From Deltaproteobacteria bacterium (GTDB lineage: Bacteria > Desulfobacterota > Dissulfuribacteria > Dissulfuribacterales > JALVPX01): DNA of 64,000 nucleotides. Below are positions 9,332 through 64,000 of this stretch, piece by piece. The number at the start of each line of letters is the position of its first letter. Position 1 is the first letter of the stretch. The stretch is from NCBI GenBank assembly GCA_027023445.1, contig JALVVK010000127.1, forward strand, positions 10,615 to 74,614, read 5' to 3'. Made by a program: the position numbers and the translations under genes. The notes beneath the pieces are model-generated. The model was not told where the DNA came from, made no database searches, and saw nothing but the letters and a program-made list of their open reading frames with translations.

Positions 9332-9430
9332 ACTATTTTTTAACACGGGTTAATATCTTGACTTGGGGACGAAAACATGGTATCGGACCCAGGCTGATGT
9401 TTTGTTAGATCTGTTCTGGATCATCTCGGT

Positions 9431-9507
9431 CGGGACGTGGCGCAGTCTGGAAGCGCACCTGAATGGGGTTCAGGGGGCCGGAGGTTCAAATCCTCTCGTC
9501 CCGACCA
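9431..9507 (+). tRNA. tRNA-Pro (anticodon GGG)
   Basis: Hand-folded cloverleaf. Acceptor CGGGACG/CGTCCCG, D stem GCGC/GCGC, anticodon stem CCTGA/TCAGG with loop AT-GGG-GT, T stem GGAGG/CCTCT, loop TTCAAAT, encoded CCA. Confidence 0.9.
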
Positions 9508-9614
9508 ACTTACTTCCTGTAGTAAATCCGGTGGATGGACGTTTGGTGGTTTCATGTTCTGAGGCTCAGGACATCACGGAATTTTTATTGATTTCGGAAA
9601 AAGGAGGGTCCGCA

Positions 9615-10073
9615 ATGGCCTTGGGCCTTGTAAACGCCTCAAAGGCGATTGAACAGGTTAGGCGGCCCGGTGACGAGGCTTCAACAGCCGTCCAGGTATC
9701 CTGTGGAATGGGCTTTCATCTACTGGTAGAGATGTGGCAGTCCCCGTTCCCAACCCTGGCGGATGCGAATATAATTGAACAGGCCCTTGGGCGTGCCGGA
9801 AAGAATAACAGAGACATGGATGAGGTGTCCGACGCACAGGTCCGGGTACATCAATTCAGCCCGTATGGCGTGTCCGGAACGGCAAGCAGCCCATCCACAC
9901 AGATCCTCATACACACCTGGCCTGAAAACAAGTATGCTGCTGTGGATATCTATGCCCGGGGCAGGGAAAGCGCCTATCAGGTGCTTGAGCAGATGAAACG
10001 GGATCTTAAACCCGGCGCGGTAAATGTTCTTGAGATTCAGCGCGGCAATCTTCTGGATATGGAGGACACTTGA
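9615..10073 (+). CDS. S-adenosylmethionine decarboxylase (SpeH/class 1)-like protein lacking the canonical processing Ser and catalytic Cys
   Basis: ATG 9615 follows AAGGAGGG (9601-9608). Contains FSPYGVSG...ILIHTWPENKYAAVDIY, the SpeH core. The track ORF 9363..10073 runs through the tRNA and is an artefact upstream of 9615. Confidence 0.7.
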   Translation: MALGLVNASKAIEQVRRPGDEASTAVQVSCGMGFHLLVEMWQSPFPTLADANIIEQALGRAGKNNRDMDEVSDAQVRVHQFSPYGVSGTASSPSTQILIHTWPENKYAAVDIYARGRESAYQVLEQMKRDLKPGAVNVLEIQRGNLLDMEDT

Positions 10074-11237: not shown

Positions 11238-11345
11238 TGGTGAATTGCCGCAAGGGACTCACAATTTTGCCGAATCTACAAGGCAGAGGGCGCACAGACG
11301 TACTTTATGTACTTCAGGTGCACGACAACGCAGTATCCCGGGTTT
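11238..11345 (+). repeat. Family A repeat, partial copy (conserved core only)
   Basis: TTTGCCGAATCTACAAGGCAGAGGGCGCACAGACGTACTTTATGTACTTCAGGTGCACGACAACGCAG aligns with the cores at 36948-37016 and 63806-63874. It ends in TATCCCGGG. Confidence 0.75.
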
Positions 11346-11382
11346 AAATCAAACCGGGGTTAACAACGGCGCGGTTAACATA

Positions 11383-12711
11383 ATGAAAAACAGTAAAAAC
11401 GAAATAACCCGCCAGACGCGCAGAATAATCTGGTCCGGAATATGTCTTGCCGTATTCTGGTGGTTTTTTGAATCAGCCACACACGTTTTCATATTTCATC
11501 AGGGCAACCTGATGACACAGGTTTTAAGCCCCAGAGTCCATGAATTATGGATGCGTATGGTTGTAGTCGTCTTATTGATGGGTTTTGCCTTCTATGCCAG
11601 GGGTGTTGTCATTCAGCGCTATAAAGCAGGGGAAAAAATAAGACGGGCCCATGCGGAACTGAACCAGATATTTAATACCGCTGCTGATGGGATGCGCATC
11701 ATAGACAAAAATTTCAACATGCTCAGGATCAATCAGACTTTTTTGAAAATGAGTGGGCTCAGCGAAAAGGAAACACAAGGTAAAAAGTGCTTCCAGGTAT
11801 TCCCAGGGCCGGATTGTCATACGTCCGAGTGTCCACTGAGTCGAATCATGGCCGGTGAGAAAAGAATTGAACATGACATTGAAAAAACCCGGAAGGATGG
11901 CCGGAAAATCCCCTGCATACTGACAGCCATGCCGTTCAAAAATACTCAGGGAGAATTGATTGGCATAGTAGAAGATTTCAAGGATATAACGACCAGAAAG
12001 CTCGCGGAACAGGCCCTTCGGAAAACGAATAATGAATTAAACGATTTCGTAAGGATAGTCTCCCATGACCTTAAAACCCCTATCTTTATAATCCAGGGGT
12101 TCTCTTCCAAATTACAGAAGAAATATAGCGACAGGCTGGATGACAAGGGCCGGGAATATATTGATCGAATAATAGAGAGCGCCCAGCGCATGGATCTCCT
12201 GGTTACAGACCTTCTCGCCCTGTCAAGGAGCGAACATTTAAAGTATTCCTTCAAGAATGTCTCTTCTTATGAGGTCCTGGATAAAGTCATCTCAAGCCTG
12301 GGGGACAGAATCAGGGAAAAGAGGATAGAAATAATCATGCCTCGGGATCTGCCGGAGATATGCGCTGACAGGCCACGTATCTACAGGGTTTTTGAAAACC
12401 TGATTGTAAACGCCATCAAATACATGGGGCACCCCCGGCATCCAAGGATTGAAATCGGATATGAAGATCTCGAAAATTTTCATCGTTTTTTTGTCCGGGA
12501 CAATGGCATTGGAATCGACCCGAAACATCACAGGGAAATATTCAAGATGTTCAAGAGGGTCAACGATTCCCCTGAGAGCAAGGGGTCCGGGCTGGGACTT
12601 ACAATTGTTGAGAAGGTCATCCTTGCCCATGGAGGAAAGGTATGGGTTGAATCCGAAAAGGGCAAAGGCGCCACCTTTTATTTTACCCTGCCCAAGGAAA
12701 TTAACAGATAA
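11383..12711 (+). CDS. PAS-domain sensor histidine kinase
   Basis: ATG 11383 (MKNSKNEI...), two N-terminal TM helices, a PAS region, H-box VSHDLKTPI, and N/G boxes (NAIKY, DNGIGI, GSGLGL). The track ORF start at 11245 lies inside the repeat. Confidence 0.88.
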   Translation: MKNSKNEITRQTRRIIWSGICLAVFWWFFESATHVFIFHQGNLMTQVLSPRVHELWMRMVVVVLLMGFAFYARGVVIQRYKAGEKIRRAHAELNQIFNTAADGMRIIDKNFNMLRINQTFLKMSGLSEKETQGKKCFQVFPGPDCHTSECPLSRIMAGEKRIEHDIEKTRKDGRKIPCILTAMPFKNTQGELIGIVEDFKDITTRKLAEQALRKTNNELNDFVRIVSHDLKTPIFIIQGFSSKLQKKYSDRLDDKGREYIDRIIESAQRMDLLVTDLLALSRSEHLKYSFKNVSSYEVLDKVISSLGDRIREKRIEIIMPRDLPEICADRPRIYRVFENLIVNAIKYMGHPRHPRIEIGYEDLENFHRFFVRDNGIGIDPKHHREIFKMFKRVNDSPESKGSGLGLTIVEKVILAHGGKVWVESEKGKGATFYFTLPKEINR

Positions 12712-13697: not shown

Positions 13698-14213
13698 ATG
13701 AACAACAGTCTGGCAGGTATGGAAAAGGTGGTCATCGTTGATGAGGCAAACAGGGTTACAGGTTCAGCTTCCCGATCCGAGATGAGAAGGCATAATCTTA
13801 TTCACCGGGCGACATACGTCCTGGTGTTTAATTCGCAAGGGAATCTCTTTGTTCACAAGCGCACTGCCTGCAAGGACCTTTATCCAGGCCATTATGACGT
13901 TGCCGCGGGCGGTGTGGTGCTCGCAGGAGAACGCTATGAGGAAGGGGCAAAACGTGAACTTGAAGAAGAATTAGGGATCTCTGGCACGCGGTTAACAAAA
14001 TCCTTTGATTTTTATCACCAAAGCAGACACAACAGGGTGTGGGGAAGGGTTTTTTCCTGCATCCATGACGGGCCTGTACGTTTACAGAAGGAAGAGGTTG
14101 AACACGGCTGTTTCATGGAAATTGGACAGATACTACGGATGATGGGAACCCACCCATTCACTCCGGACGGGGTTCTGGTGCTGCGCCGTTATCTTGATTC
14201 ACATGGGGCATAA
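13698..14213 (+). CDS. Nudix hydrolase (IDI-like/YfcD-like subfamily, not an IDI)
   Basis: Intact Nudix box GGVVLAGERYEEGAKRELEEELGI. The N-terminus resembles type 1 IDI, but the IDI Cys motif is absent. GGAGGA RBS. Confidence 0.8.
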   Translation: MNNSLAGMEKVVIVDEANRVTGSASRSEMRRHNLIHRATYVLVFNSQGNLFVHKRTACKDLYPGHYDVAAGGVVLAGERYEEGAKRELEEELGISGTRLTKSFDFYHQSRHNRVWGRVFSCIHDGPVRLQKEEVEHGCFMEIGQILRMMGTHPFTPDGVLVLRRYLDSHGA

Positions 14214-14471
14214 TCCCGGATTATGCACTTCAAATACCGAATAAAATAATTTCTTCTATAATTTAAGCATGTTGTTGTCAATATAACACCAAAAATATTC
14301 ACCTGAATGCTGACAAGTTCCAATAGCAAAAATGTTCGGCATTTAAAGCCATAAGGGGCTCGCAATTTCACCGAATTTACTGCGTTGTCGGGCAGTTGAA
14401 GTACCATAATGTCTGCATGCCCTCCGCCTTGCACCTTTGACAAACTTGCGAGCTGCATAATCCGGGATTAT
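14208..14471 (-). repeat. Family A repeat, full copy in inverted orientation, with extended palindromic ends
   Basis: Ends are GCATAATCCCGGATTATGCAC and GCTGCATAATCCGGGATTAT. The reverse complement aligns with 36926-37180 at both ends and in the core. The left end overlaps the Nudix stop codon at 14211-14213. Confidence 0.85.
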
Positions 14472-16332: not shown

Positions 16333-16341
16333 TATTGGGGC

Positions 16342-16406
16342 ATTATCCGGGGTTGTGCGCCTCAAATGCCTGAAAAAATGATTTCAGCTTCATAACCCGG
16401 GGTTAT
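16342..16406 (-). repeat. Family A miniature derivative (two termini plus ~40 nt of the right arm)
   Basis: ATTATCCGGGGTTGTGCGCCTCAAATGCCTGAAAAAATGATTTCAGCTTCATAACCCGGGGTTAT. It matches the reverse complement of 37141-37180 and is bounded by terminal-type palindromes. Confidence 0.65.
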
Positions 16407-16943: not shown

Positions 16944-17026
16944 TTCATGCCAAGTGGCGCTTCGCTTTGTCCATGTATGTTCTTGTGTGTCCATGGCTAA
17001 TCAAAAAATGCATTTTCGGATAAAAT
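16944..17026 (+). repeat. Family B repeat, partial (half hairpin plus the 60-nt right module)
   Basis: TTCATGCCAAGTGGCGCTTCGC, followed by TTTGTCCATGTATGTTCTTGTGTGTCCATGGCTAATCAAAAAATGCATTTTCGGATAAA. It matches 41945-41966 and 42131-42190. Confidence 0.75.
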
Positions 17027-17097
17027 TTACGAGCCTCTTGTGGCTTCAATGGTAAATTCCTGTGGCCATCCCAGGCAAACATGGCTATAAATATTGT

Positions 17098-35094: not shown

Positions 35095-36768
<1,674 letters not shown>

Positions 36769-36850: not shown

Positions 36851-36925
36851 TAGCCTGCCATTCCCTCAGATTTCAGCGCCTTGCCATGGGGAATACTGAT
36901 CTGTTTTTTTGCCTCATTCCTTTAA

Positions 36926-37180
36926 CCCGGATTATGCAGCTCGTAAGTTTGCCGAAGATGCAAGGCAAAGGGCACGCAGACGTACTTGTATACTTCAACT
37001 GCCCGACAACGCAGCAGATTCGGTAAATTTGCGAGTTCCTTGTGGCTTCAAGTGCCTGAGATGTAACACTGGAGGAAACCGCACCTTTTAGGTTAACAAA
37101 ATATCTGGCTGAATCGCGGCTAACTCTTTAATCATTCGACAAAAATCATTTTCTCAGGCGCTTGAAGTGCATAATCCGGG
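36926..37180 (+). repeat. Family A repeat, full copy (reference copy A1)
   Basis: Termini CCCGGATTATGCA and TGCATAATCCGGG. Helix 1 pairs 36940-36953 with 37022-37035. Helix 2 pairs 37046-37060 with 37153-37167. About 92% identical to 63784-64000. Confidence 0.9.
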
Positions 37181-37349
37181 TTTGAGGTTCAAATTTTGAG
37201 CTTGCTTTCTTCCCCAGGTTACAAGTCACCGCCTCAGCACAAAAGTTTAGATAATCATTTATTGATGAAGCAGAACCTGCGTGTTAGTTTGGATGAAAAA
37301 TTTAATTGTTGAGAACCTACCTTAGGATAGGGGTTCTGAGGAGATATCC

Positions 37350-38777
37350 ATGGATTATGAAGTCGTCATAGGGCTTGAGGTTCACGTACAGCTTAAGACT
37401 GAAAGCAAAATTTTTTGTGGATGCTCCACCACTTTTGGCGCGCCGCCCAACACCCATACATGCCCTGTTTGTCTTGGGATGCCAGGGGTCCTTCCCGTGT
37501 TGAACAGGAACGTGGTGGAATATGCCATGAGGATGGCTCTGGCGACAAATTGCCAGATCGCTCCATACAGCCAGTTTGCCCGGAAAAACTATTTCTATCC
37601 GGATTTGCCCAAAGGGTACCAGATTTCCCAGTATGAATTACCCCTGGCCGAACACGGATGGGTTGAAATCGACTTGAACGGACAGACCAAACGTATCGGA
37701 ATTACCCGAATACATCTTGAAGAGGATGCGGGAAAACTTATACATGATGAAAACAGGCCGGTCAGCTATGTCGACCTTAACCGCACAGGGGTGCCGCTGA
37801 TTGAGATTGTCAGCGAGCCTGACATGAGGGATCCCGAAGAGGCGGGAGCATACCTTAAAAAATTGCGCCAGCTTGTTCGTTACCTGGGAATAAGTGATGG
37901 CAACATGGAGGAAGGGAGCCTCCGGTGCGACGCAAATATATCCCTCAGGCCCAGGGGCCAGGATGAACTTGGCGTCAAATCCGAACTCAAGAACATGAAT
38001 TCCTTTCGCCATGTGCAGAAGGCCCTGGAATATGAAATAAGACGTCAGAGCGCCCTTTTAATGGATAACCGGAAGGTTGTCCAGGAAACCCGGCTGTGGG
38101 ACCATGGCAGAGGCGTCACCGTAGCCATGAGAGGCAAGGAGGAGGCGCATGATTACCGGTATTTCCCCGATCCCGATCTGGTGCCGGTCAGGATTGAAGA
38201 CCAATGGCTGGAATCCGTTAAAAAAAGCCTGCCTGAGCTCCCTGATATAAAAAGAGAAAGATTTGTCAGGGAATACGGCCTGCCCGCCTACGACGCGGGA
38301 GTTCTCACATCTTCCCGTTCCATGGCCGATTATTTTGAATCATGCGTAAAGGCGTTTCCCAGGCCTAAGACAGTCAGCAACTGGATAATGGTGGAACTGA
38401 TCCGGCTTCTGAAGCAGGACAACAGGGAAATCAGCGCATGCCCGGTCAGCGCGGACCATCTGGCAGGACTCCTGAAGTTGCTGGAAAAAGGAACCATCAG
38501 TGGCAAAATGGCCAAGGATGTACTGGAGCAGGCATACAGCACAGGCACTTCTCCTGAAGAAATAGTGAGGGAACAAGGCCTTGCCCAGGTAAGCGATGAG
38601 GCCACGCTCAGGGCTGTTATCCAGGAGGTCATAGACGACTGTCCACAGGAAGTGGAAAAATACCGGGCAGGCAAACACAAAATTCTGGGGTTCCTGGTTG
38701 GCCAGGTAATGAAACGGACAAAGGGCAAGGCCAATCCCCAGAAGGTCAACGCCCTTTTAAGGGAGTTGCTGGGATAG
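37350..38777 (+). CDS. gatB: Asp/Glu-tRNA(Asn/Gln) amidotransferase subunit B
   Basis: [15 protein letters not shown]... and a C-terminal YqeY-like tail. 475 aa. Confidence 0.95.
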
Positions 38778-41943: not shown

Positions 41944-42190
41944 CTTCATGCTAAGTGGTGTTTCGCACCCCGGAGCATGAAAATGTTGAATGATAAATGG
42001 TGAATTGTAAATTGCGGCAAACAAATTTTTATTAAATTCAGAAGGATATAATAACTTAACACCTTAACTTAACATTCAGGATTTACCATTTAACATTGTA
42101 TTTTCAATGCGCTTCTGGGAACATTTTGTTTTTTGTCCATGTACGTCCTTGTGTATTAATGACCAATCAAAAAATGCATTCTGGAATAAA
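41944..42190 (+). repeat. Family B repeat, longest composite copy (reference copy B1)
   Basis: Hairpin TTCATGCT/AGCATGAA (41945-41981). An internal inverted repeat pairs 41975-42005 with 42075-42110. TTAACAC modules are present. The right module 42131-42190 is shared with 16966-17026. Confidence 0.8.
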
Positions 42191-42192
42191 TC

Positions 42193-43053
42193 ATGAGAAG
42201 ACTTGATCTATATCTTGCCGGGGTTAAAGACGCCAGGTGCAGAAAATATCTCTCAGTGGCAGGCGCTGCCGCCTTGAAGGCAGGGGGCGTGCTGAAGGGC
42301 CTTTACGGGCAGCCTCATCAAATCAGGCACAAGGGAGAGATAGACCTGGTTACTGAGGCAGACGTCGCCTCTGAGAAAACAGTGATAGAAATCTGTTCAC
42401 AGGGGCTTCCAGAGGCGGAAATACTGGCCGAAGAATCAAATTCTGACTCTGACTATGCGGGTGTGCCCGGCAATCTGACATGGATTGTTGATCCTTTGGA
42501 CGGCACCACCAATTTTGCCCACGGGTTTCCGTGGTTCTGTGTATCCATTGCCCTGGCAGCCCGGGGCAAAATCGTGGCAGGGGTAATATATGCCCCGGTT
42601 TTTGATGATTTTTTTTGCGCCTGCCGGGGTTACGGGGCATGTCTTAATGGTGCCCCGATAAATGTTTCAGAAGAATCCGGGCTCTCCGGATCCCTTGTGG
42701 CAACGGGTTTTCCATATGACATCCACAGGCATCCCCGGCCGGTGATGCGGGCACTTGAAGCCATGATAGTAAAGGCCCAGGGCATAAGGAGGGCAGGGGC
42801 CGCCGCCATGGACCTGGCATATGTTGCCTGCGGCAGGCTTGATGGTTTCTGGGAAATAAAACTCAAGCCATGGGACACGGCGGCAGGCCAGCTTCTGGTG
42901 GAAGAGGCTGGAGGCAAGGTTACAGACCTAAGCGGCCGGAATTACAATCCTTTTATCCCTGAAATCCTGGCATCCAACGGGAAAATCCACGCCGCGATGA
43001 CAGACGCATTGCGACCTTTCAGCTCAGCACACATGCAAGGTGAAGTCAGATGA
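42193..43053 (+). CDS. suhB: Inositol monophosphatase family protein
   Basis: [20 protein letters not shown] and WDTAAG motifs. Confidence 0.88.
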
Positions 43054-44512: not shown

Positions 44513-44834
44513 CTAAGCCGTTAAGACATTCGCAGGGCTTGCCCTGACGGCCGTTCTATAAATCATAAAATGGAATTATAGGCACATTCAATCTATTTTA
44601 ATAATATACAGACAGTTATTATATCTCAAGCTAAAATCTTCCCGGCGCATCTCCATAAGTGTCAAAAAAATGTCACAAATTATTTGACAGGGTCCAAACG
44701 TCTAATTACTTATTATTATGTGTATGAATCTAAAGCCAGATCATGTATTTTAAATGCCAAACAACATTTATTTTGATGAGGCGCATCTTTTACCGTTAAA
44801 ATATAACACTGAATGGTAATTTCTGAATATTAAA

Positions 44835-44960
44835 TTAAGGTGCCAAGTTGTTATCTCTTTCTGAATTTAATAAAAACTTATTTACCGCAATTTGCAATTC
44901 AACTTTTATCATTCAACATTTTCATGCTCTGGGATGGAAACATCGCCTGGCATGAATGCC
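44835..44960 (-). repeat. Family B repeat, inverted copy of the left ~125 nt of B1
   Basis: The reverse complement reads GGCATTCATGCCAGGCGATGTTTCCATCCCAGAGCATGAAAATGTTGAATGATAAAAGTTGAATTGCAAATTGCGGTAAA... and aligns with 41944-42070. Confidence 0.8.
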
Positions 44961-63783: not shown

Positions 63784-64000
63784 CCCGGATTATGCAGCCC
63801 GCAAGTTTGCCGAAGATGCAAGGCGACGGGCACGCAGACGTACTTGTGTACTTCAAGTGTCCGACAAGGCGGCAGATTCGGTAAATTTGCGGGTCCCTTG
63901 TGGCTTCAAGTGCCTGAGATGTAACACTGGAGGAAACCGCACCTTTTAGGTGAACAAAATGTCTGGCTGGATTGCGGCTAAGTCTTTAATTGTTCGACCA
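63784..64000 (+). repeat. Family A repeat, copy A2 (3' end outside window)
   Basis: By hand count, 18 substitutions and no indels against 36926-37142 over about 215 nt. Confidence 0.9.

Follow-up and report, generated by a model that had tools for sequence, protein, structure and literature searches.

The 64,000-nt stretch of a Deltaproteobacteria bacterium contig analyzed here (JALVVK010000127.1, positions 10,615 to 74,614; called the window below) carries ordinary housekeeping genes. Pfam scans of its 55 non-overlapping open reading frames (ORFs) identified a lysS-type tRNA synthetase, ABC transporters, speD/speE, groEL, gatB, mreB, glyA, a fatty-acid synthesis cluster and ETF/acyl-CoA dehydrogenase genes, among others. 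Dispersed between these genes are copies of a short repeat, family A, one of which, A1, is complete, 255 nt long and situated at 36926-37180 (+) between groEL (35113-36768) and gatB (37350-38777). An earlier note, made from the letters of the window alone, had described family A as an intergenic element with inverted termini and two long internal helices, and had proposed either a non-autonomous transposable element or a multi-copy structured RNA gene. Our analysis indicates that family A is very probably a non-autonomous DNA transposon, i.e. a miniature inverted-repeat transposable element (MITE), and that its 255-nt window form is composite, consisting of a base MITE and an acquired hairpin-linker module.

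Searches of the window with A1 and with A3, run in nhmmer and blastn, identified exactly five places: A1, A2, A3 and two reduced copies, at 11258-11342 (+) and near 16341-16390 (-). This corresponds to a density of five copies in 64 kb. The gene context confirmed that every window copy is intergenic, and the Pfam scans of the 55 ORFs confirmed the absence of a transposase, an integrase or a reverse transcriptase gene from the 64 kb.

Complete copies in the window, in related metagenome-assembled genomes (MAGs) and in metagenomes are bounded by CCCGGATTATGCA … TGCATAATYYGGG. The 13-mer CCCGGATTATGCA has five exact occurrences in the window and, with up to two mismatches, ten matches vs 2.45 expected, a count reached in 0/100 shuffles, which bears out the inverted termini. 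A 5-bp target-site duplication is perfect in seven of the ten distinct complete genome copies of the window type (ATCAT for A2, via locus L134; TTAAA, ATTAA, TTGAA, ATAAT, ATAAA and ATAAT) and matches at 4/5 positions in the remaining three (A1, A3 and L113); control lengths of 3, 4, 6, 7 and 8 bp and registers shifted by ±1-3 produced no perfect match in these ten copies. A metagenome sample, scanned with the right end TTTGAAGTGCATAATYYGGG, comprised at least 120 loci. Among the matches listed, the 5-bp duplications are perfect in 35/44 long and 9/14 short copies, and the control lengths (4 or 6 bp) gave 0-1 perfect matches. The duplicated pentamers are A/T-rich (ATAAA, ATAAT, TTCAA, TTTAT, TTTAA and similar), with the target being roughly WTNAW.

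The combination of inverted termini and 5-bp duplications with clean shifted controls identifies family A as a product of transposition. The copies are short (<~600 bp) and without coding capacity, have terminal repeats and a duplication of fixed length, and are dispersed in large numbers across genomes together with deletion relics, as is characteristic of MITEs, and the MITE-like alternative of the earlier note is upheld by these features. In the mechanism that we propose, mobilization would be a cut-and-paste process driven in trans by a DDE transposase whose gene lies elsewhere in the genome and whose staggered cuts, 5 bp apart, would fall at A/T-rich sites.

Two size classes, 149 nt and 255/256 nt, were found among the metagenome matches listed. 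The 149-nt base form has perfect terminal repeats of 28-30 bp, CCCGAATTATGCACTTCAAATACCGAACAAT … ATTGTTCGGTRTTTGAAGTGCATAATTYGGG, and an alignment of 149-nt elements with A1, A2, A3 and L076 showed that a 107-nt insert, placed between left-repeat positions 13 and 14, is what distinguishes the 255-nt form from this base. In A1 the outer left terminal repeat (36926-36938, +; CCCGGATTATGCA) corresponds to positions 1-13 of the long repeat of the base element. It is followed by the inserted module (36939-37045, +; 107 nt), which is missing from the 149-nt elements in the alignment and comprises a 98-nt hairpin (36939-37036, +; stem arms 36939-36956 and 37019-37036, conserved apical core 36957-37018) and a 9-nt linker (37037-37045, +; TCCTTGTGG). 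The inner part of the left terminal repeat (37046-37061, +; CTTCAAGTGCCTGAGA), the counterpart of which directly adjoins the 13-nt terminus in the base form, leads into the base-element interior (37062-37151, +), and the element is closed by the right terminal repeat (37152-37180, +; TCTCAGGCGCTTGAAG + TGCATAATCCGGG).

Both helices described in the earlier note are real, but their anatomy has to be read differently. Helix 1 (36939-36956 with 37019-37036) and its core make up a distinct module, a hairpin that has been inserted in the left repeat; helix 2, the 5' arm of which is the segment 37046-37061 and which pairs with 37152-37167, is not a separate helix but the inner half of the 28-30-bp terminal inverted repeat. 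The loop of helix 2, said to be common to A1 and A2 and different in A3, is so indeed, and is the interior of the base element. This interior is specific to the A1/A2 subfamily, which groups with L235-type elements (stem GCCTGAG/CTCAGGC), whereas the A3 interior belongs to the GCCGAAC/GTTCGGC group. A small hairpin, CACC-TTTT-GGGTG(AA) (37086-37098 in A1, GCACCTTTTAGGT; L136-L255), is kept in nearly all subfamilies despite their differing interiors.

The subtype of the module tracks that of the base element, which favours one old insertion followed by co-divergence. The 107-nt module would have entered the base MITE once, long ago, and would have diversified since then together with its host element. 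Among the metagenome matches listed, 45 copies bear the module and 14 are base copies. Derivatives of 141-150 nt carry a deletion running from inside the module into the interior. Overall, the size of family A copies ranges from 55 to 264 nt, plus one copy of 497 nt (L037, 800-1296), which is of the window type and has a nested insertion of ~240 nt in its interior, flanked by a repeated TGCTGTTGG(A/G)A segment.

Relatives of the module were sought with a core pattern derived from the four window core copies, CAAGGCNNNGGGCNNNCAGACN{7,11}TACTTCA, which has four matches in the window and none in shuffles. It identified at least 113 stretches in species-representative genomes. Among the matches listed, all but two come from records labelled Desulfobacterales, Desulfobacteraceae, Desulfobulbaceae, Desulfobacula, Thermodesulfobacteriota, Deltaproteobacteria or delta proteobacterium; one of the two is from an unclassified 'uncultured bacterium' (L078), the other from a bin named Oricola sp. 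(L087); at least 20 of these listed matches are supplied by a single MAG, MFD02923.bin.2.57. The core occurs in two different elements: the window type (about 12 listed matches), with the termini of family A also in other genomes, and a 158-nt type (about 100 listed matches) with the layout GTAACCGTTCACAGGG – 34 nt – GTAAGCGTTTACAGGGTGCCGCAGATG – core – CAGATGCGGTGCCCTGTGAACGCTTAC. In 77 complete copies of the 158-nt element, 8-bp duplications are perfect in 39 and have at most one mismatch in 63; other duplication lengths and shifted registers gave zero perfect matches. The hallmarks of the IS66 family are an inverted repeat starting with GTAAGCG or GTAACCG and an 8-bp direct repeat (PMC11946415, PMC12888890). 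Its GTAAGCG/GTAACCG ends and 8-bp duplications mark the 158-nt relative as a MITE of the IS66 type. Other Desulfobacterales MAGs carry this element (ends GTAACCGTTCACAGGG/CCCTGTGAACGCTTAC; loci L001-L113, for example, L010 1393-1550) in great abundance.

The window hairpin is homologous to the central hairpin of this IS66-type MITE. The central 76 nt of the module are ~82% identical between the two types (a manual count from consensus sequences), while the outer arms, 18 bp in the window type (GCTCGTAAGTTTGCCGAA/TTCGGTRAAWTTGCGAGY) vs 23 bp in the 158-nt type (GTAAGCGTTTACAGGGTGCCGCA/TGCGGTGCCCTGTGAACGCTTAC), are unalignable, yet pair in both. The window elements themselves are not IS66 derivatives: they have neither GTAAGCG-type ends nor an 8-bp duplication around the hairpin, and GTAASCGTTYACAGGG sites in the window are not above chance. 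Origin of the module by simple nested insertion of an IS66-type element was considered and is not supported, since the module flanks in the window form (…GCAGCTC / GAGYYCCT…) contain no direct repeat and the expected 8-bp duplication is absent. One locus, L045 (5236-5563), contains three hairpin modules in tandem with a 99-nt period, adjoining a tRNA gene. Neither A1 nor the 158-nt consensus nor the 149-nt base form had a match in the plasmid collection, and neither the core pattern nor the right-end pattern had one in viral contigs. Literature searches retrieved no paper for the terminal or core sequences, and a search for MITEs in Desulfobacter gave only an integron review.

To which transposase the termini of family A belong was considered by comparison with known systems. 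ISEcp1 of the IS1380 family generates 5-bp duplications at A/T-rich targets, and 5-bp duplications are also made by the Tn3 family, which has 38-bp repeats (PMC2887853). ISEcp1's left inverted repeat (IRL), CCTAGATTCTACGT (left end CCTAGATTCTACGTCAGTACTTCAAAAAGC), was located 147 bp upstream of the annotated transposase in pC15-1a. The 13-nt terminus CCCGGATTATGCA has 8/13 bases in common with the ISEcp1 IRL CCTAGATTCTACG, and CC, CC-(N2)-GATT and ACTTCAAA are common to the ISEcp1 left end and the base repeat; the local alignment of the ISEcp1 terminus with the base repeat is not significant (p = 0.09). General features of IS1380 ends are also present in family A, namely the CC start, A/T-rich targets and a 5-bp duplication (4-5 bp in IS1380). 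Given the CC… ends, the 5-bp A/T-rich duplications and the shared terminal bases, an ISEcp1-like transposase of the IS1380 family is the best guess as the mobilizing enzyme, although we would put its chances somewhat below even.

We hold with the same reserve that the mobilizing transposase comes from another family (Tn3-family, ISH3, IS3/IS2-group or an undescribed enzyme). Five-bp duplications are made by several transposase families, including Tn3, the ISEcp1 terminus match is limited, and there is no IS1380 transposase near any copy examined: tblastn of the ISEcp1 transposase against the collected loci retrieved ISEcp1 itself only, and the ORFs lying upstream of 23 solo right ends belong to the host (helicase-like, ARMT1-like, FmdE, Vps62-like and others). 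The ends of family A, however, start with CC, and Tn3-type repeats start with GGGG and IS3 ends with TG; the repeat is 28-30 bp vs ~38 bp; and the A/T-rich target preference combined with the 5-bp duplication agrees with ISEcp1. CC-(N2)-GATT and ACTTCAAA are present in both ends.

The remaining alternatives concern the nature of the elements as a whole and the role of the hairpin. Were the elements to encode a structured small RNA in many gene copies, with the terminal repeats forming a closing helix, this would explain the very stable fold of A1 (-104.4 kcal/mol, z = -9.3 on the + strand; -89 kcal/mol, z = -6.2 on the - strand), the covariation described below and the preference of G-U pairs for one strand. 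Yet the supposed closing helix is flanked by 5-bp target duplications, the interior is swapped between subfamilies, and variants of 149, 55 and 497 nt exist. No orientation bias is seen when 121 core copies are compared with their nearest predicted genes: 16 have both neighbours on the element strand, 20 have both on the other strand, 19 have an opposite-strand neighbour upstream and a same-strand one downstream, and 14 have the reverse. No sigma-70-like promoter was found inside A1 or A3. At the gathering threshold Rfam reported one tRNA and nothing else in the whole window, and its covariance models matched neither A1 nor the 158-nt element at E <= 10. Together with the lack of strand bias in the stem substitutions, these results speak against the RNA-gene alternative of that note, which is largely refuted and which we consider very improbable. 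Even more remote are REP/BIME palindromes (REPINs) spread by RAYT, or palindrome-associated elements of the IS200/IS605 type. Such elements are likewise intergenic, palindromic and present in many copies, but terminal inverted repeats with 5-bp duplications are not made by REP or IS200/IS605 derivatives, the 55 window ORFs include no HUH or Y1 transposase gene by Pfam, and 149-255 nt is far above the size of a REP unit; this reading is already refuted by the duplications. Other candidates were rejected as well: a small protein starting from the ATG in the terminus (no conserved ORF exists; the 89-codon frame through A3 ends after 30 codons in A1), a cis-regulator in the 5' untranslated region (several copies lie just upstream of start codons, yet the orientation counts are flat) and an integron attC site, considered because Desulfobacterales are integron-rich (the R'/R'' core-site pattern is missing, the apical loop is the best-conserved part, and the copies have target duplications).

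A different possibility, compatible with the MITE reading, is that the hairpin module is a functional unit, either a structured RNA or a DNA cruciform, which benefits its carriers, for example through recognition of the split repeat, through an effect on read-through transcripts (stabilization or termination) or through attraction of a protein from the host or the transposon. This would account for the persistence of the module in two unrelated MITE families; also in its favour are the outer arms, which cannot be aligned but pair around a similar center, and the predominance of module-bearing copies among the metagenome matches listed. In an alignment of 45 sequences of both types, to which the structure of the 158-nt consensus was applied, 89.5% of the cells form a standard pair vs 28-41% with slid partners, and 21/42 pairs show double-sided changes, values reached in 0/500 column shuffles. 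In the window type alone the base of the outer stem has at least four compensated versions (GCTCG:CGAGC, GCCCG:CGGGT, GCAGC:GCTGC and GCTGG:CCAGC; also GCTGC:GCAGC). The compensatory variation is strong, and the concern of the earlier note that covariation might lack support did not materialize. The + strand of A1 folds 15 kcal/mol better than the - strand. A module segment of the 158-nt consensus, TTTTGTACTTCAAGTGCCCGA, resembles positions 7-27 of the terminal repeat, TTATGCACTTCAAATGCCTGA (17/21; shuffle p 0.003-0.013, uncorrected for several comparisons). On the other hand, much of the covariation signal is a single split between the two families, and the outer stem of the IS66-type element coincides with its terminal repeat, whose arms have to co-vary to serve the transposase; strong covariation in a palindromic transposon is not by itself a sign of RNA. 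Counted as distinct events, the stem substitutions show no strand bias (G-U 21 vs A-C 16 in the 158-nt family, 8 vs 6 in the window type), and paired and unpaired positions of the 158-nt family are equally variable (0.042 vs 0.042), as predicted by neutral decay of dispersed copies. The orientation relative to transcription is random, the genome scan was selected on the core, which inflates its apparent conservation, and quasi-palindrome correction during replication can match arms without selection. A functional role is thus regarded as unlikely, and still less probable is the more specific idea of the ~100-nt hairpin as a transferable 'fitness cassette' taken up by two unrelated MITE families, with its pairing kept by selection. 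Such a cassette may act as a cruciform that folds out of the split left repeat so that the transposase sees one site, or as a strand-specific RNA or single-stranded DNA structure.

Several observations weigh against the interpretation of family A as a MITE that carries its module as a neutral passenger after one insertion and is moved by an IS1380-like enzyme. An autonomous element with these termini was found neither among the window ORFs nor in 136 collected loci, plasmids or viral contigs, nor beside the metagenome solo right ends, and the same-species assemblies returned contain no empty site; mobility was deduced from the duplications. The end and duplication features of IS1380 are partly common to other families, with Tn3 also making 5-bp duplications. 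Module-less 149-nt forms occur in two subfamilies, which calls either for copies having recombined with each other or for independent insertions at one and the same site. Compensatory change in the hairpin exceeds the need of a neutral passenger, and the consensus sequences carry 4 + 3 G-U pairs and zero A-C pairs, a hint of a strand-specific constraint beyond a plain DNA-transposon model. One G-U pair (alignment columns 19:113) is common to both families. In the mechanism proposed above, stem pairing would be kept because only master copies with an intact palindrome continue to transpose; extrusion of the hairpin, which would unite the two halves of the split left repeat, is a possible reason for an intact palindrome, and quasi-palindrome correction could be an alternative source of the matched arms. 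Taken together, the strand data give weak support to a constraint under which master copies retain the palindrome, possibly on one strand, and none to an RNA gene. The A1 counterpart of TTTTGTACTTCAAGTGCCCGA, at 36985-37005, reads CTTGTATACTTCAACTGCCCGA, and the resemblance of TTTTGTACTTCAAGTGCCCGA to the terminal repeat may reflect chance or a shared protein-binding motif. The ISEcp1 left end also contains GTACTTCAA. Some copies have an extra CCCGCG-CATC-GCGGG hairpin within the 3' internal loop.

Among known systems, IS1380-derived MITEs (ISEcp1) resemble family A in their CC ends, 5-bp A/T-rich duplications, the 8/13 terminal bases and ACTTCAAA in both ends, as well as in being small, non-coding and bounded by terminal repeats. 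Family A differs in having no partner transposase in the loci searched, in a similarity to ISEcp1 that is weak and not statistically significant, and in its repeats, which measure 28-30 bp in the base form and of which the left one is split by the 107-nt insert in the window form. IS66-family MITEs (158 nt, GTAACCGTTCACAGGG…CCCTGTGAACGCTTAC) share the homologous hairpin and the same stem-loop architecture, but the window elements have an outer stem of different sequence, 5 bp shorter, other termini and 5-bp duplications. Correia elements of Neisseria, ERIC/IRU of enterobacteria and RUP and BOX of pneumococcus are similarly intergenic, 100-250 bp in size, with inverted ends and strong hairpin potential, numerous, built in a modular or mosaic way and at times nested; their sequences and host lineages are unrelated, the Correia duplication is TA, and no promoter, IHF-site or RNase III role is established for family A. 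Tn3-derived TIMEs share the 5-bp target duplications, the terminal repeats and the lack of coding capacity, whereas Tn3 repeats are ~38 bp long and those of family A are 13 bp (split) or 28-30 bp (base) and start with CCCGR. Family A is therefore not a Tn3-type TIME, a REP/REPIN, an IS66-type MITE or a member of any Rfam family. Its unusual point is that a compensated hairpin splits one terminal repeat and recurs in a MITE of a different IS family; otherwise it is ordinary bacterial mobile DNA.

For annotation this means that the repeats should be masked as MITEs and not called as RNA genes, and that they fragment short-read assemblies of this Desulfobacterales lineage. For transposon biology family A offers a clean case of modular MITE evolution, in which a long repeat is interrupted and the element still proliferates. 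Should transposition turn out to depend on hairpin pairing, this would reveal how an interrupted end is tolerated or exploited by a transposase.

The individual window copies differ in completeness. A1, for which the earlier bounds hold, is flanked by TTTAA (36921-36925) and TTTGA (37181-37185), a 4/5 target-site duplication. A2 (63784-64000, +), in the interval from tatC to yceD, runs off the window end, as had been noted; it is 92% identical to A1 over 215 nt, and its full 255-nt form, with the perfect 5-bp duplication ATCAT, was seen in the same species in locus L134 (2593-2847, -). A3 (14215-14466, -) is a complete 252-nt copy of a different subfamily, measured from terminal repeat to terminal repeat, with the flanks ATAAT and ATTAT (4/5 match); the earlier bounds 14208-14471 correctly placed the copy but took in the flanking duplications. 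It sits between a NUDIX gene, the stop codon TAA of which it adjoins, and a B12-radical SAM gene, resembles A1 over ~130 nt at the left and ~40 nt at the end (80-86% identity), and has an interior that matches those of copies in other MAGs. The core-only copy, previously placed at 11238-11345, exists, with a search-supported extent of 11258-11342 (+; nhmmer E = 7.5e-10, aligned with A1 positions 15-98). It is a decayed, truncated left half that retains the module and only faint traces of the terminal repeat; a PAS/HisKA histidine kinase gene lies downstream of it. The mini copy also exists and, after removal of the 5-bp flanks counted in the earlier 16342-16406, spans 55 nt (16347-16401, -; flanks ATAAC 16402-16406 and ATAAT 16342-16346). 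It comprises the left terminus and the last ~40 nt of the right end and is an internal-deletion derivative.

Strains were compared by exact-protein look-ups of gatB, the NUDIX gene and yceD. In every same-species assembly returned (GCA_0540… MAGs, one ENA scaffold and several Logan contigs) A1 (groEL–gatB), A3 (NUDIX–radical SAM) and A2 (tatC–yceD) have identical spacing. This presence in all assemblies returned, combined with the levels of identity (92% for A1 vs A2, ~83% for A1 vs A3), indicates that these three copies and their relatives in the window are of old age and have become fixed in the species, and they are probably passengers between housekeeping genes. Several Logan contigs (L120-L123, L127-L131) end inside or at the edge of the element, some starting 287 nt upstream of gatB, near the right boundary of the module; breaks of short-read contigs inside the element are expected of a dispersed repeat.

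Two mechanically predicted ORFs are annotation artefacts with spurious N-terminal extensions derived from element copies: ORF 11245-12711 is the histidine-kinase ORF extended upstream through the decayed copy, a 488-aa form adopted by some gene callers, and ORF 14189-14458 comprises 89 codons inside A3, starting from the ATG of the terminal repeat. The single tRNA gene of the window (9431-9504, 59.3 bits) is overlapped by a mechanical 5' extension of the speD-like ORF 9363-10073. The window also contains a second, unrelated repeat family, a 139-nt inverted pair (41966-42104 / 44798-44936, 84% complementary) that brackets a 2.7-kb block of inositol monophosphatase (IMPase), NUDIX and GGDEF response-regulator genes, and a 59-nt direct repeat (16966-17024 / 42132-42190, 83%) located directly upstream of the GTPase start at 17062 and the IMPase start at 42193.

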